NCBI GenBank assembly: GCA_036397555.1
Contig: DASWIS010000031.1
Span: 80,052-144,051 of the forward strand
Direction of reading: 5' to 3'
Source of the DNA: Candidatus Zixiibacteriota bacterium
GTDB lineage: Bacteria; Zixibacteria; MSB-5A5; WJJR01
Length of the DNA: 64,000 bases
Position numbers and translations under genes: made by a program. Below the pieces are notes generated by a model. That model ran no database searches. It was not told the DNA's origin and was given only the letters and a program-made list of their open reading frames with translations. Below are positions 3,675-64,000 of this stretch, piece after piece (position 1 is the stretch's first letter; each line of letters begins with the position of its first letter).

Positions 3675-5213
3675 ATGCTCGCCAAAATCACCTCATCGGC
3701 GGTCCTGGGCATCGACGCCTATTTGGTCGAGGTCGAGGCCGATATCTCGCCGTCACTGCCCGCTTTCGTAACGGTCGGGCTCCCGGAGGGCGCGGTGCGC
3801 GAGGCGCGTGAACGGGTCCAGGCGGCGATTAAAAACTCCGAGTTCATGTATCCCAACAAAAAGATTACGATCAACCTCGCCCCGGCAGACATCCGCAAGG
3901 AGGGCTCGGCCTTTGATCTGCCGATGGCGGTCGGGATCATGGCGGCGACCGGGCAGATTCTGCGCGAGGATTATTCCGAATACGTGCTCGTCGGGGAGCT
4001 TTCTCTCGATGGATCGCTCAAGCCGATTCACGGTGTCCTGCCCATGGCGCTCAAAGCGCTGGCCGATGGTAAGAAGGGATTTCTGGTCCCCGATGAAAAC
4101 GCGCGCGAAGCCGCCATCGCCAAGGGACTGAAGGTCTATCCGGTGCGCTCGTTGCGCGACACGGTCACTTTTCTGGAAAACGGCGACTCAGCGGTCCCGT
4201 ACGATCTCGACATCGACGAGGTCTTTGCCGAGGCGCGTGTCTACCCGGTCGATTTCACCGACGTCAAGGGACAGCAACTGGCCAAGCGCGCGCTCGAAGT
4301 CGCGGCCGCGGGCGGGCACAATGTCATCATGGTCGGGCCGCCGGGATCGGGCAAGACGATGCTGGCGCGACGTTTCCCCACCATCCTGCCCGACATGACG
4401 CTCGATGAAGCGCTCGAAACGACCAAGATTCACTCCGTATCCGGGACGCTCCAGGCCGGACGCGCTCTGATCGCAAATCGTCCCTATCGCTCGCCGCATC
4501 ACACGATTTCCAATGCGGGCCTGGTTGGCGGCGGCACGACGCCGCGTCCCGGCGAGGTCTCACTTGCGCACAATGGCGTGCTGTTCCTCGATGAGCTGCC
4601 GGAGTTTAACAAGGACGTCCTTGAAGTGTTGCGTCAGCCCATCGAAGACGGGCATGTCACCATCGCCCGCGCGGCGCTGACTTTGACGTTCCCGGCCCGC
4701 TTCATGCTGGTCGGCGCGATGAACCCGTGCCCCTGCGGGTACTACGGCTCGTCCCTTCACGACTGCACCTGCTCGCAGCAGCAGATCACGCGCTACATGT
4801 CGAAGATTTCTGGTCCGCTGATGGACCGCATCGACATCCACATCGAAGTGCCCGCCGTGAAGTTTAAGGAACTCTCGTCGGAGGAGGCGGGCGAGCCCTC
4901 GGCCGTCGTGCGCCAGCGTGTCAACACCGCCCGCAAGCGGCAAATCGAACGCTTCACCAAAGAACCGGGCATCCATTGCAATGCGCACATGGAGTCCAAA
5001 CACCTGCGCGAGTATTGCCCGATTTCCAATGAATCGCTTGATTTGATGCGCCGCGCGATCAACAAACTGGGGCTCTCGGCGCGCGCCTATGATCGCATTC
5101 TCAAAGTCTCGCGTACGATCGCCGACCTCGAAGGGACCGGGGACATTCACCCGCAGCACATTGCCGAAGCGATCCAATACCGCAATCTTGACCGCAACAT
5201 CTGGATGAACTGA
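3675..5213 (+). CDS. comM: YifB/ComM family Mg-chelatase-like AAA+ ATPase
   Basis: Walker A GPPGSGKT; Cys-rich insert CPCGYYG..CTC; full-length similarity to ComM/YifB (ChlI-like) family. Confidence 0.9.
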   Translation: MLAKITSSAVLGIDAYLVEVEADISPSLPAFVTVGLPEGAVREARERVQAAIKNSEFMYPNKKITINLAPADIRKEGSAFDLPMAVGIMAATGQILREDYSEYVLVGELSLDGSLKPIHGVLPMALKALADGKKGFLVPDENAREAAIAKGLKVYPVRSLRDTVTFLENGDSAVPYDLDIDEVFAEARVYPVDFTDVKGQQLAKRALEVAAAGGHNVIMVGPPGSGKTMLARRFPTILPDMTLDEALETTKIHSVSGTLQAGRALIANRPYRSPHHTISNAGLVGGGTTPRPGEVSLAHNGVLFLDELPEFNKDVLEVLRQPIEDGHVTIARAALTLTFPARFMLVGAMNPCPCGYYGSSLHDCTCSQQQITRYMSKISGPLMDRIDIHIEVPAVKFKELSSEEAGEPSAVVRQRVNTARKRQIERFTKEPGIHCNAHMESKHLREYCPISNESLDLMRRAINKLGLSARAYDRILKVSRTIADLEGTGDIHPQHIAEAIQYRNLDRNIWMN

Positions 5214-6004
5214 TGAGCAATCCCGAACTCAAAGACGCTGTCTGGCAGGTGCTTGAGCAGGCCGCCCGTCATCAGGAAAGCGGCGGCACGGTGCACTCCG
5301 ACTATATCATCCGCAAGTTCCCGCAGGTGAATGAAATCGAACTCATCAACGCCATCGGCGAGTTGGTCGAGGATGGAAAGGTTACGGTCAAGGCCGCCAC
5401 GATCGACGCGCATGGAAACGCCACGGCCTATCACATCCATGTGCGCGACGTCGGGGACCGTCCCGATGCGCCGCCGACTCGCGGGCCGCGCATCGCCTCC
5501 GGCAGCGTCGGCTTCGGGCCGGGCTCCGGGCCGCCGCCGCCGGAGCAGAAGCCGCCCGCCGATGAACCGAAAAAGTCCGCGGACAGAGCCGTCGAGCAGG
5601 CGTCGCGTGTCAGTGTCGGTTTTGGCGGCGATCAGCCCGCGCTGTCGAAGCAACCGCCGCCGGATGATCGTTCGGATCGTGTCAACGTCTCCGTGCCGGG
5701 CACCGTCGACAAGCGTTCGGCGATGCAAATGGAAGCCGAGCAAAACTTCGCCGACGAGATGGCGTCGTTCTTCGCCGAATTGGAGATGGCGGAAACCTCC
5801 GACCCCGATGCCCGCGACGAACTGACCAACCAATTGATGGTGCTGATGGCGATGTTCCAGATGGGCGAGACACGCGACTTCACCACCCCGATCAACAAAC
5901 TCGCCGCATTGAAGACCCGCGTCGCGCATGTCGTCCCCGACCTCGTCGGCGACTATGTCCTGCTCGTGCAGACCGCGGTCCGTGCGTGGCTGGGGCGGGT
6001 GTAA
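5213..6004 (+). CDS. hypothetical protein (structured N-domain, Pro/Gly-rich disordered linker, helical C-domain), translationally coupled to comM
   Basis: ATG at 5213 overlaps the comM TGA (5211-5213) as ATGA; low-complexity GPGSGPPPPEQKPP linker. Confidence 0.5.
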   Translation: MSNPELKDAVWQVLEQAARHQESGGTVHSDYIIRKFPQVNEIELINAIGELVEDGKVTVKAATIDAHGNATAYHIHVRDVGDRPDAPPTRGPRIASGSVGFGPGSGPPPPEQKPPADEPKKSADRAVEQASRVSVGFGGDQPALSKQPPPDDRSDRVNVSVPGTVDKRSAMQMEAEQNFADEMASFFAELEMAETSDPDARDELTNQLMVLMAMFQMGETRDFTTPINKLAALKTRVAHVVPDLVGDYVLLVQTAVRAWLGRV

Positions 6005-23484: not shown

Positions 23485-23509
23485 CTGCCGCAAGTGCAGC
23501 AACGCATGT

Positions 23510-23549
23510 GCCACTGACCCCTGTGCCCCGAAGGGGTATGGTCAGTGGC
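23510..23549 (+). terminator. strong hairpin downstream of atpC (perfect 10-bp inverted repeat GCCACTGACC / GGTCAGTGGC with a nested CCCC-GAA-GGGG)
   Basis: Read directly. No U-run follows, so it may be a Rho-independent-like or processing structure rather than a canonical terminator. Confidence 0.35.
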
Positions 23550-31254: not shown

Positions 31255-32727
31255 TCACAGTTCGGTGTGGGACAGATCGTAGTCTTTAATCTTGTACAGC
31301 AGTGAACGGTAGCTGATTTCCAGTATCTCCGCCGCTTTACGGCGATTCCAGTTCACCTTCCTCAGCACCTCGGCAATCAGCCCGCGTTCCTCTCGTTCCA
31401 CGGCGGCGGAGACGCGCTTTTTCAACGAGTACCCGAAGTCCTCCTGCGGCCCGGTGGGATTGAAGTTTCGCGCCGCCGCCTGAGTCCGCGGCCCGCGCGC
31501 CGCGCTGGTCAGCAGTTCTTCGATGATCGACTCGTCGCTGCGGACGACAACCTGTTTGATCAAGTTTTCCAATTGGCGGACGTTTCCGGGCCACGCGTAT
31601 TCCATCAGCTTGCGCATCGTTGTCGCCGACAGACCCGGCAGCGACCGATTGTAAACACCGTTGTACTTATCGAGAAAGAACTGCATCAGCAGCGGAATGT
31701 CTTCGACACGCTCCCGCAGCGGCGGCAGCGTAACCGTGACCTCGTTGAGGCGGTAGTACAAATCCTCGCGCATGGCGCGCTCGGCGATGGCGTCTTCCAG
31801 GTCGCGGTTGGTGGCGCAGACGATGCGAACATCGACTTTGATCGTGGTCAGTCCGCCGACGCGGACGAATTCCTGCTGCTCAAGCACCTGCAAAAGCTTC
31901 GGCTGCAATTCTAACGGCATGTCGCCGATCTCATCGAGAAACATCGTGCTTTTGTCGGCGGTCTCAAAGCGCCCCGGTTTGGTCTTGTGCGCGCCGGTGA
32001 AGGCGCCGCGCTCGTAGCCGAACAACTCGGCTTCGAGCAAATCACGAGGAATCGCTGCACAGTTGACCTTGGTGAACTCGCGGTCGGATCGCGCGGACGC
32101 AGTATGGATCATGCGGGCGACGACTTCCTTGCCGGTGCCGCTCTCGCCGCGAATGAGCACCGTCAGATCGCTGTCGGCGATCTCGTCGAGCGTTTCTTTG
32201 ACTCTTTGAATCACCGGTGAGTCGCCGACGAGATTCTCGAATCGGTTTTGCAGCCGTAGCTTCAGACGCGCGTTTTCATCGATGATTGCGACGCGCTCGA
32301 ATGCCTTCTCCAGATGGATGGCCACTTCCTGCGAGTCGAACGGCTTGCTGATAAACTCCATGGCCCCAAGCTGGATCGCCGCGGCGACCGTATCCGATTC
32401 CCCGTGCCCGGAGAGCATGATGACGGGCAGAGATTCCTTGGCCGAACGCAGCCGTTCGAGAACATCCAGCCCCGACAGACCGGGCATCCGGACATCCAGC
32501 AGGATCAGGTCGGGATGCCGCTGCGAGGCCATCTGGATGCCCTCGTAGCCGTCGTTCGCTTCGAGAATCTCGTAACGGTCGGACAACTGCTCGGAGAGAA
32601 TCCAACGGACCTTCGGGTCATCGTCGATGACCAGAATCTTGCGGCGATTCTCGTCCACCGCACCCTCGGCGGGTCCGCCGGGCATGGCCGAAGGTCCTCT
32701 TGGGAGGGTTGAATTCTTCTGCATCAT
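31255..32727 (-). CDS. sigma-54-dependent response regulator (NtrC family): REC + AAA+ + Fis HTH
   Basis: REC DDD/K pattern, GESGTGKE Walker A, GAFTGA, C-terminal HTH. Confidence 0.85.
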   Translation of the reverse strand: MMQKNSTLPRGPSAMPGGPAEGAVDENRRKILVIDDDPKVRWILSEQLSDRYEILEANDGYEGIQMASQRHPDLILLDVRMPGLSGLDVLERLRSAKESLPVIMLSGHGESDTVAAAIQLGAMEFISKPFDSQEVAIHLEKAFERVAIIDENARLKLRLQNRFENLVGDSPVIQRVKETLDEIADSDLTVLIRGESGTGKEVVARMIHTASARSDREFTKVNCAAIPRDLLEAELFGYERGAFTGAHKTKPGRFETADKSTMFLDEIGDMPLELQPKLLQVLEQQEFVRVGGLTTIKVDVRIVCATNRDLEDAIAERAMREDLYYRLNEVTVTLPPLRERVEDIPLLMQFFLDKYNGVYNRSLPGLSATTMRKLMEYAWPGNVRQLENLIKQVVVRSDESIIEELLTSAARGPRTQAAARNFNPTGPQEDFGYSLKKRVSAAVEREERGLIAEVLRKVNWNRRKAAEILEISYRSLLYKIKDYDLSHTEL

Positions 32728-32805
32728 TTGGATTATCGGCTGCCGCGTGTACGATCTGTACCAGATTCTGCAATCGGCCGCAGCCGCCCGCGATTCTGGG
32801 GATCG

Positions 32806-34986
32806 TCAGCGAACCGGGAAGCGAATCGTAAACGTCGTTCCCTGCCCCGGCGTGCTGGCGACACTGATCTGTCCGTCGAAGGCATTGACGATCCGTTGCA
32901 CGATCGGCAGCCCCAGCCCGGTCCCGCTCTCTTTGGTGGAATAGTAACGTTCGAAGATGCGATCGAGCTCGCGTTGCGAGAGTCCCGGCCCCGTGTCGGC
33001 GATGGCGATGACGACCTGGTCGGTGCCGCCGTTGTATCCCGGTTCCGTATAGGCGAGAACCGTGAGCGTGCCGCCGTCGGACATCGCATCGACCGCGTTC
33101 ATCAGCACGTTGAGGAGCGCTTCGGTCAGTTTATTGTCGTCGCAGAATATCGAGGGCAGCGTGGAGGGGATGTCAGGTCGAATCTCGATCCGGTTGCGCC
33201 GTGCCGACGACTCCGCCAGATCGATCGCGCGCAGGATGATGGGGCGCGGATCACGACGATGCGTGCGGTAGCGACGCGGATTGGAGAAGTCGACCAATTC
33301 CGTGACCAGTCCCGCCAGCCGCACGATCTCGCGCTCGGTGTCGGCGAGTATTTCGCGCGCCTTCGGGTTGGTCGGAAACTGCTGCATGAGCACCTGCAGA
33401 CTGCCGCGGATGCTGGTCAGCGGCCGGCGCAAATCGTGTGAGATCTCCGAGATCATGTTGCCCATCGTGACCAGGCGCGACGCGTTCAGGAGCGCACGCT
33501 GCCGCTCGAATATGCGCTCGGCCTGTGCGCCGACCAGCTCGGCCAGGCGACGTTCTTCTTCCGTGAAGGGCCGGTCATTATGGCGGATGATCGCAAAGAC
33601 GCCCAACGGCTGGTCGGCCGATCGCACGGGGACGGTCAGCAATGCCCCGGCCTCCGGCTTCCATTCGGCCTGTGCGAGTGCCCGCGCCACTGCGCCCTCG
33701 CAAGTTTCGTGATCGTTTACGGTATTCGGCTCCAGCGCCTCGGACATCGGGACCGACGCATACTCTCCCGCCGGATGCAACGTGTCGGTATCCAGCCGCA
33801 GGATCTGCTCGGCCTGATCCCAACGCCACCACTGCAGGCAATCCGACAACAAGAGGTCATCGAATGCGGCGAAGACGGCCATCACCATCTGTCCGGTGCG
33901 TTCGACACGCGACAGCCGTTCGGCGAGCAAGTGGATCGCCGAGACTTCGTTGAGTCGCTGTCGCAACTCCTGATAATGACGGGCGTCGTCGATGGCGATA
34001 GCGACTTGCGACGCCAGCGTTGCCAGCAATCGCAAATCATCGGGGCAGAATGCGGTTCGATTCAGCCGATCGGAAAGACAGATGACGCCGAGCGTTGAGT
34101 TGGGCGTCTTCAACGGCGCCGCGATGAGCGACTTGGTCTCGAATTGCGGCCGGTTCTTGTGCCCGAATCGTTCGTCCGTTTCGACGTCTTCGACAAGGAT
34201 CGGCTCGCCGCTGGCGGCCACCAGCCCGGCCACCGACGATCCCAGCGGTATCTCGACCTGCGGGAAGCGCGTTGCATAGGCGCCGGTTGCCGCCTCGACC
34301 GTCAGCACGTCGCGTTCGCGGTCCAGCAACAAAATCGACCCGTACCCGGCCCCGACAACGGCCGTTGCCCGTCTGAGAATCGACTCGAGCAGTTCCGGAA
34401 GCTCGGCCGTGCTCGACAAGGTCTGTGATACTTCGTGGATGGCATTGAGCTCGGCGACGCGGCGACGGAGCCCGTCGTTGGCACTCGTCAACTGTACCGT
34501 CAGTTCGAGCTGGGTCGCATATAGACGTCGCTGCTGCGTCGCGCGCCGGATTACCGAGCGCAGATTGTTTGCATTGATCGGTTTGAGGAGACAATCGTAG
34601 ATGTGCAGCCCGACCGTATTCATGACTGCCTCGGTGTCATCCGCCGATGAAACGACGATCAGCGGCAGCCAGGCGTCGAGATTGCGCAGGTTCTCAATCA
34701 ATCCCTCCAGCCGGGAGCGGGCGGACTCCGAATCGATCAGCACGACATCGATGGGACAATCAGCTTGTTGGACGGTTTGCAATGCGGCGGCCGGATTCCC
34801 GGATCGCAAGAGCGTGTGCCCGTCGGCCTGCAGTATCTCGGACATCCGCACGCCCGCCGGCGAGTCGCCGCAGACGAACAGAACACGGCTGCGCGCCGAT
34901 TGCATGTCTGTGCCCGTGAAAGGGACCGGGGCGACTGGCTGTAGCGGTTGTGGCATGCCGATAACGGTGTCCCACGCGGAGGACAC
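32806..34986 (-). CDS. hybrid sensor histidine kinase (REC-like N-domain, GAF, HisKA, HATPase_c)
   Basis: H-box ISHDLRRPLTSI, N/G boxes (NAVDAM, DTGPGL, GTGLGL); GAF between; an N-terminal receiver-like domain is included. Confidence 0.8.
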   Translation of the reverse strand: MSSAWDTVIGMPQPLQPVAPVPFTGTDMQSARSRVLFVCGDSPAGVRMSEILQADGHTLLRSGNPAAALQTVQQADCPIDVVLIDSESARSRLEGLIENLRNLDAWLPLIVVSSADDTEAVMNTVGLHIYDCLLKPINANNLRSVIRRATQQRRLYATQLELTVQLTSANDGLRRRVAELNAIHEVSQTLSSTAELPELLESILRRATAVVGAGYGSILLLDRERDVLTVEAATGAYATRFPQVEIPLGSSVAGLVAASGEPILVEDVETDERFGHKNRPQFETKSLIAAPLKTPNSTLGVICLSDRLNRTAFCPDDLRLLATLASQVAIAIDDARHYQELRQRLNEVSAIHLLAERLSRVERTGQMVMAVFAAFDDLLLSDCLQWWRWDQAEQILRLDTDTLHPAGEYASVPMSEALEPNTVNDHETCEGAVARALAQAEWKPEAGALLTVPVRSADQPLGVFAIIRHNDRPFTEEERRLAELVGAQAERIFERQRALLNASRLVTMGNMISEISHDLRRPLTSIRGSLQVLMQQFPTNPKAREILADTEREIVRLAGLVTELVDFSNPRRYRTHRRDPRPIILRAIDLAESSARRNRIEIRPDIPSTLPSIFCDDNKLTEALLNVLMNAVDAMSDGGTLTVLAYTEPGYNGGTDQVVIAIADTGPGLSQRELDRIFERYYSTKESGTGLGLPIVQRIVNAFDGQISVASTPGQGTTFTIRFPVR

Positions 34987-35081: not shown

Positions 35082-35498
35082 CTACACAGAGTCTGAGACG
35101 GCGGGTGAGGCGTGCGGATTCTCCTCCTCGGCCTCTTCTAAGCCCTGGTATTTGGACGGGCATTTGACAAGGAGCTGTTCGGCGACAAAAGTCCCGTGCT
35201 CAAATCGGCCGCGACAGACGACATCTTTGGCCTGATCGAAGTTCCCCGGCGTGACACCCTGGTACGCCACCGGCATCATGTGCCCCTCTTCATCGACGAT
35301 GGAAAAGTGCAATGTCCCGTTGGCGTGGTCGTACCGCACTTGGTCCTTGTCGATCTCTCCCATGACCTGGCACGATCGATCCAACCCCTTGGCTTGGGCG
35401 ATGCTGACGTACGGCGTCACCGACCCGCGAAAGGCCACCGCGGCAACTGCGCCGCAAACCGCGATGATGGAGAGACCGACAACGTAACGCTTGTTCAT
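35082..35498 (-). CDS. ccmE: cytochrome c-type biogenesis heme chaperone CcmE
   Basis: N-terminal TM anchor, OB fold, LVKCPSKY C-terminal heme-binding region; AAAGGA RBS; ATG 35498 (the ORF-track start 35564 adds an unlikely 22 aa). Confidence 0.75.
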   Translation of the reverse strand: MNKRYVVGLSIIAVCGAVAAVAFRGSVTPYVSIAQAKGLDRSCQVMGEIDKDQVRYDHANGTLHFSIVDEEGHMMPVAYQGVTPGNFDQAKDVVCRGRFEHGTFVAEQLLVKCPSKYQGLEEAEEENPHASPAVSDSV

Positions 35499-35605
35499 TC
35501 CGAGTCCTTTCGTCTGTTGATACGACGGTCGACGCGCAGAAGATACCAAACGACGCCTGTCCATGTCACCAGGACTGCCACCATCGCGGACATTGTGTCA
35601 TTCAT
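35495..35605 (-). CDS. ccmD: heme exporter protein D (tiny single-TM CcmD)
   Basis: 36-aa ORF MNDTMSAMVAVLVTWTGVVWYLLRVDRRINRRKDSE, 8-nt overlap with the ccmC stop and ATGA overlap with the ccmE start. Confidence 0.4.
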   Translation of the reverse strand: MNDTMSAMVAVLVTWTGVVWYLLRVDRRINRRKDSE

Positions 35606-36275
35606 CGGTTGCCGCTCCAACTGTATCGCCCACCCTCGCCGCGGCTGTTCCAAGATCAAGCAGCCATACGTAGAGTAATGCAAATCCGATTATTGAACTG
35701 GCAAAAACCGCTCCCACGGCTCCGGACATGTTGGAACTGCCGGCCGAGAGGACCACTTGATTGGCATCACCGTGCAAAGAGGTATAAAGCCGGGGGAGCA
35801 CGAAATACAAGAACGGTGAGATGGCTCCGGCCATGATCAGATAGACTGCGGACAGACGGCGTCGGACTTCGACATCACCCGTGGCCTGTCTGAGGGCAAA
35901 AAACGCCCCGTAGATGAGGATCATCACAAAGAGAAACAACTGACGCGGATCCCAGTTCCAATAGGCGCCCCATGCCTGCCGCGCCCACAAGGCACCGGTG
36001 ATACTGGCGACGATGGAGAAGGTCAGTCCCAGTTCTGCCGAGGTCGCCGCCCGATGGTCGTGAGACACCCGACGCGTACGCAGGTATGAGACTCCGTAAA
36101 CGGCGGCCACGATGAACGCGACAAACGACATTTGTGCCATCGGGACGTGGAAGAAGAAGATACGTGAAGCCTCCTTGCCCGATTGCATGGAAGCCAGCGG
36201 CGGCGGCATCGTAAACGCCAGCACGACCACCGCCGTGATCAGCACGATCGCGCCTGCGCGAATCAAATCCATCAT
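35598..36275 (-). CDS. ccmC: heme exporter protein C
   Basis: WGAYWNWDPRQ tryptophan-rich (WWD) motif; 6-TM pattern. Confidence 0.85.
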   Translation of the reverse strand: MMDLIRAGAIVLITAVVVLAFTMPPPLASMQSGKEASRIFFFHVPMAQMSFVAFIVAAVYGVSYLRTRRVSHDHRAATSAELGLTFSIVASITGALWARQAWGAYWNWDPRQLFLFVMILIYGAFFALRQATGDVEVRRRLSAVYLIMAGAISPFLYFVLPRLYTSLHGDANQVVLSAGSSNMSGAVGAVFASSIIGFALLYVWLLDLGTAAARVGDTVGAATDE

Positions 36276-36377
36276 GAGGTCATTATCCCGTCATGTCACG
36301 ACGCCCGGTCGCCCGGTGTCACAATTATACTCTAAAAACCGGATGATCTCTGTCAACATATGCCGGATTTGACAGCT

Positions 36378-37037
36378 TCATCCTCGCCATACGAACGGAA
36401 ACAACAGCCATCCAGCCGTCGTGGTCACGACCGCGTAAGCCCCCAGCACCATCAACGAGTCGCCGACCGACGAGCCGGGGTCACCGCCGAGCGCAAATTC
36501 GGTCGCACGGATCGCTACAATCAACAAGGGGAGAAGCAGCGGCAGCGCCAGAACTGAAAAGAGCGCCCCACGAACGTTTGCGGCGGCAACCACGGCGCCC
36601 AGCAGTGTCACGATTGAGACCAGGCCGACGCCACCGAGAGCCATTGTGACCGACCAGACTATCCAATCGTCAACCGTCAGCCCAAGCAGGAGGGGCGAGA
36701 GCAGCGACAAAATCACCTGCAGACCGATCACCAGAACCATGTTAAATGCCCACTTGCCGAAGAAAACGGCATCGGCCGAGGCGGTCAGCTTCAAAAACGT
36801 CTCTGTCTTAGTCTCCGATTCTTTGACAAACGCATGGGCCAACGATGACAGCGCCGAAAACATCGTGATAATCCACACAAACACAGCCGCCCACATCGGA
36901 GTCAGTCCGATGCCGCCCGACGCAAACGACAAAGCCGCCATCGTCGCCAGCGCAAAAAGCAATAGCCCGTTGAGCGCATAGCGGGTCCTGCACTCCGACC
37001 GCAGATCCTTCTGGAAGATCGCCAAAAACTCAATCAT
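36378..37037 (-). CDS. ccmB: heme exporter protein B (ABC permease)
   Basis: 6-TM CcmB-like; ATG 37037 (MIEFLAIFQKDL) overlaps the ccmA end by 8 nt; the long ORF-track N-extension is Arg/Pro-rich and overlaps ccmA. Confidence 0.7.
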   Translation of the reverse strand: MIEFLAIFQKDLRSECRTRYALNGLLLFALATMAALSFASGGIGLTPMWAAVFVWIITMFSALSSLAHAFVKESETKTETFLKLTASADAVFFGKWAFNMVLVIGLQVILSLLSPLLLGLTVDDWIVWSVTMALGGVGLVSIVTLLGAVVAAANVRGALFSVLALPLLLPLLIVAIRATEFALGGDPGSSVGDSLMVLGAYAVVTTTAGWLLFPFVWRG

Positions 37038-37692
37038 CGGTTTCCCAGCCGCCAACCGGACCCATGCGCACACGCCGTGAGGCACGGCGGGCCTCCGCGA
37101 CGTCGTTGGTGGCAAACAGGATCGCAGCCCCGCTCGCCAGCGCCTGGCGCCACACGAGCTCGACTCCCTCCGGATCGAGACCAGTGGTCGGCTCATCGAG
37201 GAGCAACAGGGAGGGTCGCTTCAGGAGTGCCACGCACAACTTGAGACGTTGCTTCATTCCCGATGAGTAGGTGGCGACACGTTCGTCGCCTCGCCCCGCC
37301 AATCCGAACTCAGCGAGTGCATCGCCCAACTGCTTGTAATCCTGGTGCATTCGACTGAGTCGAGCCGCCAACCTCAGGTTTTCCAACGCGGTGAGTTCAT
37401 CGTAGAGAGCCAGATCCGCGGAGACCATGCCGACCGATTTGTGGAGACGATTCGACGACAAAACCTGCCCCGCGTAACGGTGCGATACTGAGCCGCTGTC
37501 GGGACGCGTCAATCCCGCAATTATTCTCAGGAATGTCGATTTTCCCGATCCGTTTGGCCCGACGACCGCAACCAGCTCGCCCGGCGCCGCGGTCAGATTG
37601 ATGTCGTGGCAGATGACCCGGCGGCCATAGGATTTTGAGAGATTCTCGACTTCGAGATTGTAGTTGGTCACCGGTCCCGTTCCCATCGCCAC
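37030..37692 (-). CDS. ccmA: heme exporter ATP-binding protein CcmA
   Basis: Walker A GPNGSGKST, ABC signature YSSGMKQR, Walker B LLLLDEP; heads the ccmABCDE cluster. Confidence 0.8.
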   Translation of the reverse strand: MAMGTGPVTNYNLEVENLSKSYGRRVICHDINLTAAPGELVAVVGPNGSGKSTFLRIIAGLTRPDSGSVSHRYAGQVLSSNRLHKSVGMVSADLALYDELTALENLRLAARLSRMHQDYKQLGDALAEFGLAGRGDERVATYSSGMKQRLKLCVALLKRPSLLLLDEPTTGLDPEGVELVWRQALASGAAILFATNDVAEARRASRRVRMGPVGGWETDD

Positions 37693-59718: not shown

Positions 59719-61146
59719 ATGAATCTACGACGCGTGAATCTGCCGATTCTGGCCGTCCTCTTCCTGTCCGGATGCGGCTCGACATTGCCCCTCCCCGGCG
59801 AGCGCCCCCCGTTGACCGATCGCCAGAGGGATGCTGCCCTCAAGGCGCTGCTGGGACAGGACGACTATGCCGAGTATGTCTTGATTGCCGACACACTCGA
59901 ATCGGCCGAGTGGCTGCGCAAGTTTTGGGTCAGCCACGACCCGACACCCGCTTCAACCGAAAACGAATTCAGGGACGAGCACGAACGGCGCGTCTACCAC
60001 GCGATCTATCTGTTCGGCAGCCATTCCGGCGGGCCGCCGTGGGATGAACGGGGAGAGGTATACATCCGCTATGGCCAGCCCGACGAGCGCCTGATCCGCC
60101 GCGGGGTCGATGACGATCCAACTTCGGCTTTCCGGCGCGAACAGGACGACAGATTCGACGACCCATTAGACAACGTCAACACGGCTACGGAAGTCTGGAC
60201 CTATTACCGCTGGAACCAGACATTTCAATTCGAGGACAAACGTGGCTGGGACAGCTTCGAGATGGTCCCGGTGACCGACCCGTTTTCGGAGCGTCAGGAC
60301 CTCGCCGAGTTCTATCAGAATCGTCTGCGTGCGGTCGATCTGCAGCCGGCGATCTACTACCACGAGTACGGCCGCAACCTGATCGATTACTCCCTCGACG
60401 TGGTGCGCTTCCGTGGCGAGGACGGCAATTGGCGGGTCGATATCAATCTTGGCTACCCGCTCTCCGAGCTCGAGCGTGCCGAAGACTCCGTATCCATCAC
60501 CATCCAACGCACCGTCATCGTCCGAGACGACGAGCAACGCGATGTCTACGCAGAGGGAGGGCGCATCCAACGGATTGTCGGCAACCAGTCCGACAATCGC
60601 CTGATGGTCGAGCAGAAGGTGCTCGACCTGGCGCCGGGAGCATACGCGCTCATTGTGCGTGTCGACGATTTGATCTCCGGGAAGTCGGGAACGTACATCA
60701 AAAACTTCAGACTGCCCGAGTTCATCGTCCCGGAAGTGCAGGAAATCTCGGACATCGAGCTGGCGTCGTATGTCTGGTCCATCTTCGAGCCGGGCGCCTC
60801 GTTCGTCAAAAGTGACCGCGTGGTGGTGCCGTTGCCGTCACGTGTCTATCTGCCGGGGCAACCGCTGTCATTCTATTTTGAGGTTTACAATCTTCTCTTA
60901 AACGACGACGGCCAATCCCACTTCTCGATCTCCTACGAGATTTCGGGAATCGAACGCCGCGAGAAGAAATCCTACGATGCGGCCCACAGCGGGCCGCGCA
61001 CGGGGAATTCACGCCACGTCAGCCATGTCGATTCATTTGACATCGACGATCTGGCTGCGGGAGAATACGTCCTGACCGTCCGTGTCAACGATCTCCTCGG
61101 AAAGCACGAAAAGACGACAGCGGTACAATTCAAGAAATCGGGCTGA
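59719..61146 (+). CDS. GWxTD-domain lipoprotein
   Basis: Lipobox LFLSGCGS; WDERGEVYIRYGQPDER matches the GWxTD-domain core (from memory of TIGR04514). Confidence 0.55.
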   Translation: MNLRRVNLPILAVLFLSGCGSTLPLPGERPPLTDRQRDAALKALLGQDDYAEYVLIADTLESAEWLRKFWVSHDPTPASTENEFRDEHERRVYHAIYLFGSHSGGPPWDERGEVYIRYGQPDERLIRRGVDDDPTSAFRREQDDRFDDPLDNVNTATEVWTYYRWNQTFQFEDKRGWDSFEMVPVTDPFSERQDLAEFYQNRLRAVDLQPAIYYHEYGRNLIDYSLDVVRFRGEDGNWRVDINLGYPLSELERAEDSVSITIQRTVIVRDDEQRDVYAEGGRIQRIVGNQSDNRLMVEQKVLDLAPGAYALIVRVDDLISGKSGTYIKNFRLPEFIVPEVQEISDIELASYVWSIFEPGASFVKSDRVVVPLPSRVYLPGQPLSFYFEVYNLLLNDDGQSHFSISYEISGIERREKKSYDAAHSGPRTGNSRHVSHVDSFDIDDLAAGEYVLTVRVNDLLGKHEKTTAVQFKKSG

Positions 61147-61174
61147 AGAGACAGGGTTCGGGCCATCCGCGCGT

Positions 61175-61594
61175 TCAGTTGTCCAGGGCGCCCTCATCGA
61201 TCCATGTGCGGATAATCTGAATCAACGTATCCGCCAGCGGTGCGCGGCCGAACGGCATGCGCGGCGTGACCGTTCCTTCGAGAATCAGGATGATGTAGCT
61301 ATCGTCGGCGCTGCCGGGAATCACGACCGGACCGCTCACCGAGGCGCCCGACATCAGCGACTCGTAGCTGGCCAGACTCAGCCCATTTGCCGCACTGCCG
61401 ATATGACACCCTGCACCGGAACAATTGGATTGGAAGATCGGTAAGACTTGGGCGCTGAAAGACACGAACTCCCTCTGCGGACGGGTGCCGGTTCCCAGGT
61501 CGGTACAAGCGGATATCGTCGCGAGGGTTACAAGAGCCAATACCCGACAGCCGGCACGTCGCCTCAGTTGAGGTCTGGAGTACGGAACGGTCAC
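61175..61594 (-). CDS. lipoprotein with PSCyt1-like (planctomycete cytochrome c-like) domain, variant heme motif CSGAGCH
   Basis: Lipobox LATISAC; VLPIFQSNCSGAGCH...LSLASYESLMSG...GPVVIPGSADDSYIIL...MP...IIRTWIDEGA follows the PSCyt1 pattern (VxPILxxxCxxCH...PG...S.L...MP...I..WI..GA) but with CX4CH. Confidence 0.45.
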   Translation of the reverse strand: MTVPYSRPQLRRRAGCRVLALVTLATISACTDLGTGTRPQREFVSFSAQVLPIFQSNCSGAGCHIGSAANGLSLASYESLMSGASVSGPVVIPGSADDSYIILILEGTVTPRMPFGRAPLADTLIQIIRTWIDEGALDN

Positions 61595-61627
61595 AACGCT
61601 CAGTGCGCGGCGCAGCCAGGGTGACGG

Positions 61628-62752
61628 TTAGTAGTATCCGTGCAGAATGATCTCGACGCGGCTGTTGGTCCTACGCCCCGGTACGGTTTCACCTTCCTCG
61701 TAACGTACCAGCGGTTCAAGCTTCAGATAGTGGCGCAGGTAAACACGTGTGCCGAGCGTGATTTGAGTCTGTGTACCGGTTGCAAAGTCAAGATCGGGGT
61801 CTAAGTAATCCCATGCCACATACACGTCGACGCCATCGCGTACAAGCAAATCCAGCTCCTGCGTGAACAGCCACGACCGGAACACGGCGTTCTCATCGCG
61901 GACATCTTCCATGCGACGCTTGTAGAAATCTCCCACATATGTCAAGGGGCCCCACCGCCCCTGGGCAAGGATGCCCCATAGCTTTTCGCGGAATGTGCTG
62001 CCGCGATTGACCCGCGCGCTTGCGCCCAATGCGGCTTGCGCCGACTGTCCCAGTGCCATCCGATAAAGCCCACGGCCGACGAACTCCTTTTGCGAATTGT
62101 CGTCGAGACTGCCGAACCCGCCGCTGGAGCCGTTGAACACCCCGGCCGAGAAGACCAACGGTCCCGGCCGGACCCCCACCTCGATCCCCGCTTGCGCCGC
62201 CCCGGGAAAATCCAATCCCAGCTTCTCGCGCGTGTAGTGGTTGTGGTCATCCCAACGCCAGCCGATGTCGGGGGCAAAGTGTCCGACCTTCAGATAGCCA
62301 TGTTCCGGAAGGAAACGACCCAGCATGAAGACTTCATATCCGCCCTGAATCCCGCGATCCAGATACAGCACAAACTCCCGGCTCGGCTCAAACGCAAGGT
62401 AGACATCGCCCTGCATCTGAAAAAAAGTATTCTTGAGCGCACCGCGAGACTGCGTCGCGACATCGTCGGTCGCCAGATACAAAAAGCGGATGTCGGTGCC
62501 GATTCGAATCTGCTCGTTGAGCTTGGGCTCCGGCCATCGTGTCCGCTCGTGCGCTGCCAGCGGTTTCAGCGTCAGTTCGGTCGGACCGACATACTTGTTC
62601 ACGTAGTCGTTCCGCAGTCCGCCGCCTGTCGGATTGACGTGGCAGAGATGACAATCCTGACCGTAAGAGGCGGACAAACGCGGGGTGGCGTGGGCCGATA
62701 TACCGATACTGAGGAATGCCGAGAGAACCGTGGGCGTCAACAACCGGCGCAT
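61628..62752 (-). CDS. Cyc2-like fused monoheme cytochrome c / outer-membrane beta-barrel porin candidate
   Basis: Signal peptide, CHLCH (CxxCH) 10 aa into the mature protein, then about 330 aa with alternating-hydrophobic beta-strand pattern ending ...ILHGYY (aromatic C-terminus typical of OMPs). Confidence 0.45.
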   Translation of the reverse strand: MRRLLTPTVLSAFLSIGISAHATPRLSASYGQDCHLCHVNPTGGGLRNDYVNKYVGPTELTLKPLAAHERTRWPEPKLNEQIRIGTDIRFLYLATDDVATQSRGALKNTFFQMQGDVYLAFEPSREFVLYLDRGIQGGYEVFMLGRFLPEHGYLKVGHFAPDIGWRWDDHNHYTREKLGLDFPGAAQAGIEVGVRPGPLVFSAGVFNGSSGGFGSLDDNSQKEFVGRGLYRMALGQSAQAALGASARVNRGSTFREKLWGILAQGRWGPLTYVGDFYKRRMEDVRDENAVFRSWLFTQELDLLVRDGVDVYVAWDYLDPDLDFATGTQTQITLGTRVYLRHYLKLEPLVRYEEGETVPGRRTNSRVEIILHGYY

Positions 62753-62790
62753 GGATGGATTAACCGCTCCGACGGCCGGTTTCGCAATGA

Positions 62791-62826
62791 CAGAAAAATG
62801 AAATCCTCCGCAGAGCGGAGGATTTC
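62791..62826 (-). terminator. intrinsic terminator after the 63027..63914 gene (perfect 12-bp stem GAAATCCTCCGC-AGA-GCGGAGGATTTC, then AUUUUUCUG on the minus strand)
   Basis: Read directly; lies between the hypothetical exported protein and the Cyc2-like gene. Confidence 0.6.
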
Positions 62827-63026
62827 ATCACCCAGGTTTAAAGGAGGGATTGTATGCGGCTTGCCCTGAGGGCGTAGAAGCGAAGTTCGGTCTACATATT
62901 GCTGGCTCCGGTCGGACAGGGCACATGGCCCCGACCCGTCTCCTTGTGTCTCTGACTGACTGCAAACTAAAGGGTCTGCTCGGATGCGCAATAGCTTTTT
63001 TGAAGCCGCTGGCTGGCCCCCGACAG

Positions 63027-63914
63027 TTACAGGCCGTCTTCAATCTCGTCTAACAAGGCGTTGGCGCGCCGCACATGAAGCAACGCCCGCAGGAATCGGC
63101 CCGAACCCAGGGCATCGGCTGCCGTGTCGAGGTTGTTCCCGGCTTGGTCCAGCCCGACTTCGATGTCCGCTGAGCCGGGAGGGCCGACACGGGCGGCAAT
63201 CGCCAGCCAGCGCTCCCGGGATTCCCCGATGAGTGCGGCCACCGCGTCGGCATTGATGGATTCATCGCCGGACAACAGCAGTTCACGCAACGCAGCGCGC
63301 GCATGCCGGAGATGATCGGACGCAGAACGCCAATCGCCGCTTTCCATGGCACGACGCGCCGCCGCGTGGGCGTCGCCCGCCCGCTTCAGCGTTTCCATCG
63401 CTCCGGCATCGGTCCGGTCGATCAGGGATTCCGAACGCGTAATCGCCGCGCCGATACGATCCGCCTGCCGATCAATCCGCAACGGCTCTTGTCCGCGATC
63501 GGGGCGGCGTCGCTCCATTCCCCGTGCGGGCAAACTCAGCAGGTCCCTGGCCGCGAGGGTTCGACGCAACGCGCGCAGTGGACTGTTGCCGCGGTAATCG
63601 TGCCATGCGTCGCCCTGCATCCGCTGCGCCTCGCGCACACGATTCTGCAGGAAGGGGACCGGCCGCCGCGTCACTCGGTCGGTCCATTGCCGGATCAACT
63701 GGTCTGTCGCGACCAGTTCATCGCGGACTGTGGCCAGATGCTCGCTGTCGGTAAGATCGGCGGAGCGGAGACTGTCCTGCGCGACAGCGACTGCTGCCCA
63801 CAAGAGTCCGGTCAGCACGGCGATGGCACAAGACGGGATTATGAATCGGCCGGCGGCGTGGGTGAGCGGCCGTGTCCTGCCTGGCGGTGTGAATGCTGCC
63901 GGGTGGGATCGCAT
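63027..63914 (-). CDS. exported alpha-helical hypothetical protein
   Basis: ATG 63914 directly abuts the upstream TAG; hydrophobic N-terminal segment; Arg/Ala/Leu/Asp-rich helical composition; no family recognised. Confidence 0.45.
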   Translation of the reverse strand: MRSHPAAFTPPGRTRPLTHAAGRFIIPSCAIAVLTGLLWAAVAVAQDSLRSADLTDSEHLATVRDELVATDQLIRQWTDRVTRRPVPFLQNRVREAQRMQGDAWHDYRGNSPLRALRRTLAARDLLSLPARGMERRRPDRGQEPLRIDRQADRIGAAITRSESLIDRTDAGAMETLKRAGDAHAAARRAMESGDWRSASDHLRHARAALRELLLSGDESINADAVAALIGESRERWLAIAARVGPPGSADIEVGLDQAGNNLDTAADALGSGRFLRALLHVRRANALLDEIEDGL

Positions 63915-64000
63915 CTACTCCAGCCCATGCTTTCTCAGGCGCGCATACAGCACGCGCCGGGTGATTTTCAATGCGCGTGCCGCCCTGCTCTTGTTTCCGC
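63915..64000 (-). CDS. 3' end (C-terminal Fis-type HTH) of a transcriptional regulator, truncated by the window edge
   Basis: Translates ...AARALKITRRVLYARLRKHGLE*, the classic C-terminal HTH of NtrC/Fis-family regulators. Confidence 0.4.
   Translation of the reverse strand, partial: GNKSRAARALKITRRVLYARLRKHGLE

Follow-up and report, generated by a model that had tools for sequence, protein, structure and literature searches.

A candidate outer-membrane electron transfer gene pair in Zixibacteria: a cytochrome-porin remotely related to Cyc2 and its lipoprotein cytochrome neighbor

RESULTS

A cytochrome-porin gene and a lipoprotein cytochrome gene lie side by side

We analyzed a stretch of 64,000 nucleotides from Candidatus Zixiibacteriota bacterium (assembly GCA_036397555.1, contig DASWIS010000031.1, positions 80,052 to 144,051), hereafter the window. 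Two of its genes are the subject of this report. One encodes a 374-amino-acid (aa) protein with the architecture of a cytochrome-porin, and the other, starting 33 bp beyond the stop codon of the first on the same strand, encodes a 139-aa putative lipoprotein cytochrome. The 374-aa protein is 100% identical to a hypothetical protein of a Zixibacteria metagenome-assembled genome (MAG) at NCBI and is also found on JGI soil metagenome contigs of up to 292 kb. The two genes, each an open reading frame (ORF), and the features of their products are as follows.

61628..62752, minus strand: cytochrome-porin gene, 374 aa, assigned on profile evidence to the Cyc2 superfamily as a probable, unnamed sister family
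62687..62752, minus strand: signal peptide, aa 1 to 22, cut after AHA (read from the sequence; A22 kept in at least 90% of relatives)
62510..62686, minus strand: N-terminal cytochrome domain, aa 23 to 81, with the family motif TPRLSASYGQDCHLCHVNPTGGGLR (logo of 195 sequences)
62639..62653, minus strand: CHLCH heme c attachment site (C34, C37, H38), invariant in alignments A1 and A3
61631..62509, minus strand: predicted 16-strand beta-barrel, aa 82 to 374, with a conserved long loop 3 (aa 160 to 186, GWRWDDHNHY) and C-terminal ...HGYY (DSSP on the AlphaFold2 model, Foldseek)
61175..61594, minus strand: lipoprotein monoheme cytochrome gene, 139 aa (GTG start), predicted PSCyt1/FoxE-type domain
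61505..61507, minus strand: lipobox cysteine C30 (TISAC), invariant in the six closest relatives (lipoboxes IIGC, MIAC, and ISAC)
61403..61423, minus strand: CSGAGCH (CX4CH) heme attachment site, aa 58 to 64, with CX4CH in the six closest relatives
61256..61258, minus strand: M113 of an RMP motif, likely distal heme ligand, invariant in alignments A2 and A5

The 374-aa protein combines one heme-binding motif with a predicted 16-strand barrel

The N terminus of the 374-aa product reads MRRLLTPTVLSAFLSIGISAHA|TPRLSASYGQDCHLCH, a signal peptide with an AHA cleavage site after residue 22. A signal peptide had been proposed in a first-pass annotation of the window. A single CHLCH follows at residues 34 to 38, and A22 sits at position −12 from the first heme cysteine. 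The first-pass annotation had correctly counted one such motif but had placed it about 10 residues into the mature protein; its first cysteine is the 12th residue of the mature chain. In two alignments of relatives at 24 to 62% identity, one of 42 and one of 114 sequences, C34, C37, and H38 never vary, and the CxxCH motif is kept in 195 of 195 motif-bearing family sequences, an invariance far beyond chance. Exactly one CxxCH occurs in 196 of 200 family sequences, the remaining 4 being truncated. Across the 114 aligned sequences (approximately 23 to 62% identity), the invariant positions are P24, C34, C37, H38, P41, R47, G85, D87, R89, G157, G164, G307, and D318, and G43 to G45, M113, Q114, D169, H170, R175, and H371 are kept in at least 90%.

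An AlphaFold2 model built with the family alignment (predicted local distance difference test score [pLDDT], 88.9; predicted template modeling score, 0.86) has three short N-terminal helices followed by 16 strands that run from residue 82 to the C terminus (residues 82 to 373), which agrees with the beta-barrel body proposed earlier. Residues 31 to 80 of the N-terminal domain have pLDDT values of 86 to 91. The modeled barrel has short turns on one side and long loops on the opposite side, including the 27-residue loop 3 (residues 160 to 186), whose GWRWDDHNHY is the most conserved segment of the barrel; the C terminus reads ...ILHGYY. When the model was compared with the PDB using Foldseek, the phosphate porins OprP (2o4v) and OprO (4rjw) were the first and second matches, and these are also the templates published for the Cyc2 porin. 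Sequence searches were less informative: the 374-aa protein had no confident match in Pfam or NCBIfam (OMP_b-brl, with an E value of 0.003, fell short of the cutoff), and the porin family profile found nothing significant among PDB sequences.

The 374-aa protein is not a Cyc2 by the published definition but aligns with Cyc2 over its full length

In the definition of Keffer et al. (PMC8406198), a Cyc2 protein has a signal peptide and a single CXXCH, with the motif AXPXFAR[Q/K][T/Y] upstream of the CXXCH and PXL four residues after it; it is at least 365 aa long, and its 16-strand porin part is modeled on OprP/OprO. The 374-aa protein has the signal peptide (22 aa), the single N-terminal CXXCH (CHLCH, aa 34 to 38), the length, the 16-strand model, and OprP/OprO as its top Foldseek matches, but it has neither of the two sequence motifs. 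Upstream of the heme site it reads A-T-P-R-L-S-A-S-Y, matching the Cyc2 motif only at A, P, and Y, and in place of PXL it has H-V-N-P-T-G-G-G-L-R, with the proline at +3 followed by an invariant GGG. The family as a whole shows the same pattern in the logo of 195 sequences. The consensus upstream of the heme site is A-x-P-R-[YF]-[AS]-A-R-Y, with A rather than R at position −6, where R is outside the five commonest residues, and the heme site is followed by V-N-P-[TS]-G-G-G-[ML]-R, compared with x3-P-x-L in Cyc2. Counted from the first cysteine, the register nevertheless matches that of Cyc2: A occupies position −12, P position −10, an aromatic residue position −8, either A or S position −7, and either Y or T position −4. 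Because PXFAR[Q/K][T/Y] and PXL are absent, the 374-aa protein is not a Cyc2 by the published definition.

For profile comparisons, we obtained Cyc2 reference sequences by way of a Cyc2-like ORF (AIPAFARRE...CHRCHDSWPRL) that lies beside a family gene in locus L073. A homolog search with this ORF, which returned only 5 proteins, led to proteins with the exact published motif, and a metagenome scan with these strict-motif proteins gave 80 loci, from which 52 sequences were kept (P.FAR[QK][TY]-x3-CxxCH-x3-PxL, at least 365 aa). A hidden Markov model (HMM) of the 52 sequences scored the 374-aa protein at 10.3 bits and no family member above 20 bits, with a median of −2.9 for shuffled sequences. 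In the reverse direction, the family HMM matched strict-motif Cyc2 proteins at 25 to 35 bits in two collinear segments. Profile-profile alignment was more sensitive: hhalign aligned the family with the 52 Cyc2 sequences over the full length (342 columns) at 99.1% (E = 9e-19), and with only 4 strict-motif sequences at 98%. The barrel alone (96.9%, E = 2e-10) and the N terminus alone (97.9%, E = 5e-13) each aligned as well. We considered whether generic barrel periodicity could produce this signal and rejected that explanation because reversed and column-shuffled Cyc2 profiles gave at most 1%.

These comparisons show that the 374-aa protein is a full-length remote homolog of Cyc2, and we place it in a distinct sister family within the Cyc2 superfamily. 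The Cyc2-like architecture proposed in the first-pass annotation, an N-terminal monoheme domain on an OprP/OprO-like 16-strand barrel, therefore holds, with full-length profile homology to strict-motif Cyc2. Like Acidithiobacillus ferrooxidans Cyc2, Mariprofundus Cyc2PV-1, and Leptospirillum Cyt572 (FeGenie clusters 1 to 3), the 374-aa protein has a signal peptide, an early single CxxCH, and a spacing of 10 from the proline to the cysteine, and its model fuses a cytochrome domain of approximately 60 residues to the barrel. A ...[YD]F.DP... segment near the C terminus is common to both families. Unlike Cyc2, the family in the window lacks FAR (PRLSASY in the 374-aa protein), has NPTGGG[ML]R in place of PXL, is approximately 370 aa long where Cyc2 proteins are mostly at least 400 aa, and usually has a PSCyt1/FoxE-type cytochrome rather than Cyc1 as its neighbor.

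The cytochrome-porin family is large and spread over many phyla

A word-indexed search with the 374-aa protein returned 120 relatives, of which all named ones are labeled "hypothetical" and none carries a Pfam domain. An exhaustive profile search extended the family to 3,499 cluster representatives (50% identity) at an E value of ≤1e-3, including 1,982 at ≤1e-10, and a scan of one genome per species confirmed at least 496 relatives among the 600 pattern matches listed. The hosts among the matches listed belong to Zixibacteria, Eisenbacteria, Krumholzibacteria, Latescibacteria, Bacteroidota, Ignavibacteria, Fibrobacteres, Nitrospirota, Methylomirabilota, and some Proteobacteria, the main ones being Zixibacteria, Eisenbacteria, Krumholzibacteria, Bacteroidota, Ignavibacteria, and Nitrospirota. 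We found no description in the literature of this family, its motif, or its pairing with FoxE-type cytochromes. The scaffold of a fused cytochrome-porin is already known; the apparent novelty lies in a large divergent clade that has a signature and a partner of its own.

The 139-aa protein is a predicted monoheme lipoprotein of the PSCyt1/FoxE type

Starting at its GTG codon, the 139-aa protein opens with basic residues, continues with a hydrophobic segment, and then reaches a lipobox, RRRAGCRVLALVTLATISAC, which was read by eye and follows the rule [LVI][ASTVI][GAS]C; other gene callers give alternative lengths of 121 or 96 aa. The PSCyt1-like lipoprotein of the first-pass annotation was supported by the conserved lipobox cysteine C30, relatives that carry PF07635 (P0126 and P0128 to P0131, at E values of 1e-21 to 1e-8), and a family profile that matches FoxE. 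That annotation had also drawn attention to the unusual CX4CH and asked whether orthologs share it. CX4CH is kept in the six closest orthologs, and more distant relatives, which have a Pfam PSCyt1 match, have CxxCH in the same columns, so that CX4CH amounts to an insertion of two residues.

When family profile A2 was searched against the PDB, the first match was FoxE (5MAB; E = 4.6e-16), with both of its heme domains covered, and FoxE still came first with profile A5, which holds only six CX4CH sequences (E = 2.5e-5). Profile A2 also matched the C-terminal heme domain of hydrazine synthase alpha (5C2V; E = 1e-9). By these profile matches, the PSCyt1-type domain is homologous both to the two FoxE heme domains and to the C-terminal heme domain of hydrazine synthase alpha. 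The RMP motif around M113 aligns with RMPLG and RMPPG of FoxE, in which the hemes are His/Met ligated (PMC10654088). An AlphaFold2 model of the 139-aa protein was of moderate quality (pLDDT, 74.7) and has four helices. Taken as a whole, the 139-aa protein is predicted to be a monoheme PSCyt1/FoxE-type heme domain.

FoxE is a putative periplasmic Fe(II) oxidase with two hemes from Rhodobacter ferrooxidans SW2. Its likeness to the 139-aa protein lies in the heme site and the RMP(x)G segment, which align with the profile of the 139-aa family. Unlike FoxE, the 139-aa protein has one domain instead of two, a lipoprotein anchor, and CX4CH instead of CxxCH; its gene has no foxY or foxZ neighbors and is paired with an outer-membrane cytochrome-porin gene, a pairing not known for FoxE. 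PSCyt1 domains are usually part of large multidomain proteins. The 139-aa protein, while of the same domain family (PF07635), is a stand-alone lipoprotein with the two-residue insertion in its heme motif. Two other identities were rejected. Cyc1, a dihaem c4 cytochrome with two CxxCH domains, is ruled out by the single heme site and the domain type, and the 139-aa protein has no match to the Cytochrome_CBB3 or Cytochrom_C families of Pfam; a complex of the MtrAB/PioAB type is ruled out by heme number and domain type. The first-pass annotation had likened the gene pair to the cyc2-cyc1 arrangement of iron oxidizers. With a monoheme FoxE/PSCyt1-type partner in place of a dihaem c4 cytochrome, this comparison is reduced to a functional analogy.

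The porin gene usually has an electron carrier gene as its neighbor, and the type of carrier varies

Synteny was examined in 79 genome loci, whose predicted ORFs were searched with the porin and PSCyt1-like profiles. A PSCyt1-like cytochrome gene adjoins the porin gene in 54 of the 79 loci, across phyla, and of the 68 PSCyt1-like copies, two of which sometimes share a locus, 66 are found less than 1.5 kb from the porin gene and in the same orientation. In comparison, only 2 of 70 loci with the canonical Cyc2 motif have a PSCyt1-like neighbor, and 12 of 70 have other c-type cytochromes. The pairing seen in the window is therefore syntenic across phyla, in agreement with the candidate electron transfer module proposed in the first-pass annotation.

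The two closest Zixibacteria representatives have a cupredoxin gene in the carrier slot (L004:3949-4377 and L005:9276-9695). In L004, where the slot lies between the porin gene and a convergent GWxTD-like gene, the cupredoxin is a candidate lipoprotein with a Pfam Copper-bind match (E = 5.6e-11) and the motif YFCQPHELMGM; in L005, it was assigned by its copper site motif only. The cupredoxin looks like a nonorthologous replacement of the electron carrier. In two further loci (L066 and L077), the porin gene is preceded by a cupredoxin-like ORF, recognized by motif, and followed by a gene for a dihaem c4-type cytochrome, recognized by Pfam, and L055 and L073 also have dihaem c4-type neighbors (Pfam). 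The swap of one one-electron carrier for another suggests that the slot serves a periplasmic redox partner. Of the arguments from gene context, this apparent interchange of unrelated carriers in a single slot speaks most strongly for a role in electron transfer.

The arrangement resembles the cyc2-cyc1/rus operon of A. ferrooxidans, in which the gene for an outer-membrane monoheme cytochrome-porin stands beside genes for periplasmic one-electron carriers, and the carriers in some loci are of the same kinds (a cupredoxin in L004 and L005 and a dihaem c4-type cytochrome in L055, L066, L073, and L077). It differs in that the carrier in the window is neither Cyc1 (c4) nor a cupredoxin and in that oxidase genes are not linked. 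MtrAB, MtoAB, PioAB, and the porin-cytochrome complexes of Geobacter are likewise outer-membrane electron conduits made of a barrel and c-type heme. In those systems, a separate decaheme or multiheme protein passes through a 26-strand barrel, whereas here one heme site is fused to a 16-strand barrel.

Several further observations concern these neighborhoods. Just downstream of the porin gene, Bacteroidota and Ignavibacteria loci often have two PSCyt1-like genes, the first with CX4CH (CVNAGCH, CVNVGCH, CTDAGCH, or CAIPSCH, with CVNAGCH occurring in Bacteroidota) and the second with CLPCH, and CX3CH forms (CTTICH, CALGCH, and CTDGCH) are also seen among the PSCyt1-like neighbors; these variants come from loci L036, L039, L040, L042, L047, L050, L051, and L078. 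The recurrence of CX4CH and CX3CH in other phyla suggests that noncanonical heme sites arose repeatedly in the PSCyt1-like domain family. A gene with a YceI-like domain lies directly downstream of the porin gene in approximately 30 loci (for example, L029:9035-9661; PF04264, E = 1.8e-24) from Eisenbacteria, Krumholzibacteria, Latescibacteria, LCP-89, Fibrobacteres, and, in one locus, Zixibacteria; the window does not have this gene. In the Nitrospirae MAG locus L073 (L073:6062-10225), the family gene stands between the dihaem c4-type gene and the near-canonical Cyc2-like gene (AIPAFARRE...CHRCHDSWPRL) from which our reference set started, so that two cytochrome-porins of different subfamilies are in tandem.

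Regulatory and housekeeping genes in the surroundings of the gene pair

In the direction of transcription, the gene order around the pair is a histidine kinase gene, a sigma54-type response regulator gene, a gene for a 295-aa protein, a 275-bp spacer, the 374-aa and 139-aa genes, and a convergent gene with a GWxTD domain. The features outside the gene pair are as follows.

63915..64000, minus strand: 3′ end (86 bases) of a gene for a sigma54-dependent NtrC-type response regulator (gene table of loci L001 to L003)
63027..63914, minus strand: ORF for a 295-aa helical protein, secreted or anchored, abutting the regulator gene; upstream conservation in Zixibacteria
62797..62829, minus strand: hairpin with a 15-bp stem and a T-run, terminator- or attenuator-like, 45 nt upstream of the porin ATG
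59719-61146, plus strand: GWxTD domain gene (TIGR04514, E = 7e-13), convergent to the gene pair
~35082-37686, minus strand: ccmABCDE (Pfam), 24 to 26 kb from the gene pair

The histidine kinase gene that partners the regulator was placed beyond the window by loci L001 to L003, and approximately 10 other loci likewise have genes for a histidine kinase and a sigma54 response regulator in the vicinity of the porin gene. The first-pass annotation had described the sigma54 regulator as adjacent. The tail of the regulator gene is indeed present, but the 295-aa gene and the hairpin lie between it and the porin gene. The 295-aa protein, which had no match in Pfam and NCBIfam scans, is 29% identical (E = 7e-18) to the product of L004:28-837, which has the same relative position. 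L004 and L005 have an additional conserved gene for a protein of approximately 450 aa between the 295-aa-type gene and the porin gene (L004:928-2310 and L005:6114-7454); the two products are 44% identical to each other, and the gene is absent from the window.

The hairpin, GATGAAATCCTCCGC TCT GCGGAGGATTTCATT, has a perfect stem and is followed by TTTTTCTG. It lies 198 nt past the stop codon of the 295-aa gene, has a z-score of −4.8 relative to shuffled sequences, and is unique in the window; an Rfam scan of positions 60900 to 63200, hairpin included, gave no match. The hairpin leaves almost no room for a promoter before the porin ATG, and it could act as a terminator of the regulator operon or as an attenuator of the porin operon. 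No sigma54 −24/−12 element (TGG-N9-TGC) was found in the 275 bp upstream of the porin gene, where only a weak GG-N10-GC could be seen by eye, and a direct sigma54 link to the porin gene is therefore unsupported. Elsewhere in the window, TGGCACATGCGTTGC (positions 23499 to 23513, minus strand) is a perfect match to the sigma54 −24/−12 consensus. The match, which may be due to chance, sits where the ATP synthase operon ends, with a minus-strand gene on its other side, and points at the 3′ end of atpC.

The heme c maturation cluster ccmABCDE is present in the window, as the first-pass annotation had stated. It is generic housekeeping context and stands outside the module. Directly beside it, a second sigma54-type response regulator gene and a gene for a histidine kinase with a GAF domain occupy positions 31255 to 34986 (minus strand). 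The position of the GWxTD gene after the carrier gene is apparently kept in L004 (positions 4492 to 5955), where the similarity of the N terminus was judged by eye, which suggests that gene order is kept locally in Zixibacteria and does not point to a link in function.

DISCUSSION

A possible route for electrons across the outer membrane

We favor, with moderate confidence, the view that the gene pair forms an outer-membrane one-electron transfer module that most plausibly takes electrons from dissolved Fe(II) and passes them to a periplasmic carrier. In the published Cyc2 model, the heme domain plugs the barrel at its periplasmic mouth, Fe2+ has to go into the pore, and a periplasmic carrier takes up the electron. 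With the same predicted topology, the 374-aa protein would be exported, matured by the Ccm system, and inserted in the outer membrane as a 16-strand porin-like barrel, with its N-terminal monoheme c domain of approximately 60 residues placed in the periplasmic opening or next to it. From outside, the pore would admit a small dissolved redox species, with Fe2+ the most plausible candidate, and this species would donate one electron to the heme. The electron would then move to the cotranscribed 139-aa lipoprotein, a putative His/Met monoheme cytochrome with CX4CH, which would relay it to the respiratory chain. From the features described above, we infer that heme is attached, where the heme domain sits, what the loops do, which substrate is used, and which way electrons flow, as well as iron oxidation itself.

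By the strand order of the model, loop 3 (WRWDDHNH, with D168, D169, H170, and H172) and loop 7 (DPDLD, starting at D318) would be extracellular or line the pore. Both are acidic and histidine rich, which would suit a divalent cation and differs from the arginine ladder that OprP uses for phosphate. H371 is close to where the final strand ends on the periplasmic side, and this residue, H170, and the conserved M113 of the 374-aa protein could each serve as the sixth ligand of the heme.

Several points weigh against this interpretation. As the Cyc2 motifs are absent and the Cyc2 HMM gives the 374-aa protein only 10.3 bits, function cannot be transferred from Cyc2 by simple orthology. No member of the cytochrome-porin family is known to have been studied experimentally, and no cultured iron oxidizer was found among the matched genomes listed. 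About one-fourth of the loci have no neighboring redox carrier. The assignment of the carrier has its own weak points: the 139-aa protein alone scores 19.2 bits (E = 0.0019) against a Pfam gathering threshold of 22 for PSCyt1, and PSCyt1 domains are widespread in proteins of unassigned function. The link to FoxE rests on profile searches, since a search of the PDB with the single 139-aa sequence returned nothing, FoxE included, and Foldseek with the 139-aa model gave only nonsignificant matches (FoxE, E = 0.16).

Alternative explanations

The same hardware might work in the opposite direction, or reversibly, and export electrons from the periplasmic carrier to an extracellular acceptor in solution, for example, chelated Fe(III), a humic quinone, or a flavin. 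A monoheme conduit would be intrinsically reversible, and Zixibacteria and Ignavibacteriales MAGs have been reported with genes for both oxidation and reduction. Even so, we regard export as unlikely, given that both characterized homologs, Cyc2 and FoxE, are described as oxidases, that known reducers use multiheme conduits, and that quinol dehydrogenases of the CymA/NrfH type are not indicated in the neighborhoods. Oxidation of a reductant other than iron (Mn2+, Cu+, sulfide or polysulfide, or reduced humics) is a further alternative, and a difference in substrate may explain the divergence from Cyc2. The family has invariants of its own that Cyc2 does not share (HVNPTGGG[ML]R, FFQMQGD, GWRxDDH, and the C-terminal H..Y), its partner is of another type (PSCyt1-like in 54 of 79 loci versus 2 of 70 canonical Cyc2 loci), and the tandem with a near-canonical Cyc2-like gene in L073 suggests nonredundant roles. 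Genes of sulfur, manganese, or copper metabolism do not recur in the neighborhoods, however, and the pore loops, being acidic and rich in histidine, suit a divalent metal cation but do not discriminate among metals; we consider this alternative improbable as well.

It is also conceivable, if rather doubtful, that the heme of the porin has a nonrespiratory role in redox or gas sensing, in the detoxification of peroxide or superoxide, or as a structural plug that gates solutes. The YceI-like neighbors (approximately 30 loci) and the two-component regulators (approximately 10 loci) would fit envelope stress or sensing, and the one-fourth of loci without an adjacent electron carrier also speaks for a nonrespiratory role. 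An electron transfer chain, on the other hand, predicts both the linkage across phyla and the interchange of cytochrome c, cupredoxin, and c4, which a sensor or gate does not. Finally, the 374-aa protein could be an ordinary Cyc2 ortholog that existing Cyc2 markers already cover. FeGenie-based surveys report cyc2 in Zixibacteria, Ignavibacteriales, and Krumholzibacteria MAGs, and these genes may or may not be members of the CH[VI]NPTGGG[ML]R family; moreover, Cyc2 clusters share only 17 to 20% identity with one another. Against this, the published Cyc2 tree (PMC8406198) left out sequences without PXFAR[Q/K][T/Y], and almost none of the 195 family sequences has R at position −6. The 52-sequence Cyc2 HMM remains at 10.3 bits for the 374-aa protein and at 20 bits or less for any family member, there is no Pfam or NCBIfam match, and every named member is a "hypothetical protein." We therefore give very little credence to an ordinary Cyc2.

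Implications for iron cycling

Cyc2 is the main genetic marker for inferring microbial iron oxidation in metagenomes, and the family described here has the Cyc2 architecture and is concentrated in uncultured phyla of soil, sediment, and the subsurface. As the published motif filter excludes this family and the strict-motif HMM built here misses it, Cyc2 markers may undercount the potential for iron cycling in soils and sediments. The conserved pairing links relatives of two iron oxidases, Cyc2 and FoxE. To our knowledge, relatives of these two have not previously been reported together. The recurrent CX4CH and CX3CH heme sites of the partner are naturally occurring variants on which the tolerance of the Ccm system for different substrates could be tested, and the compact two-protein system is directly testable by heterologous expression.

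We tentatively raise the possibility that the CH[VI]NPTGGG[ML]R cytochrome-porins constitute a large, apparently undescribed sister family of Cyc2 and, together with a FoxE-type cytochrome or a cupredoxin, a second widespread pathway for the oxidation of dissolved Fe(II) or another extracellular one-electron exchange. If the family acts on another substrate, it would show how the Cyc2 scaffold has been retuned; if it acts on Fe(II), iron oxidizers would be more widespread, in phylogeny as well as in environment.

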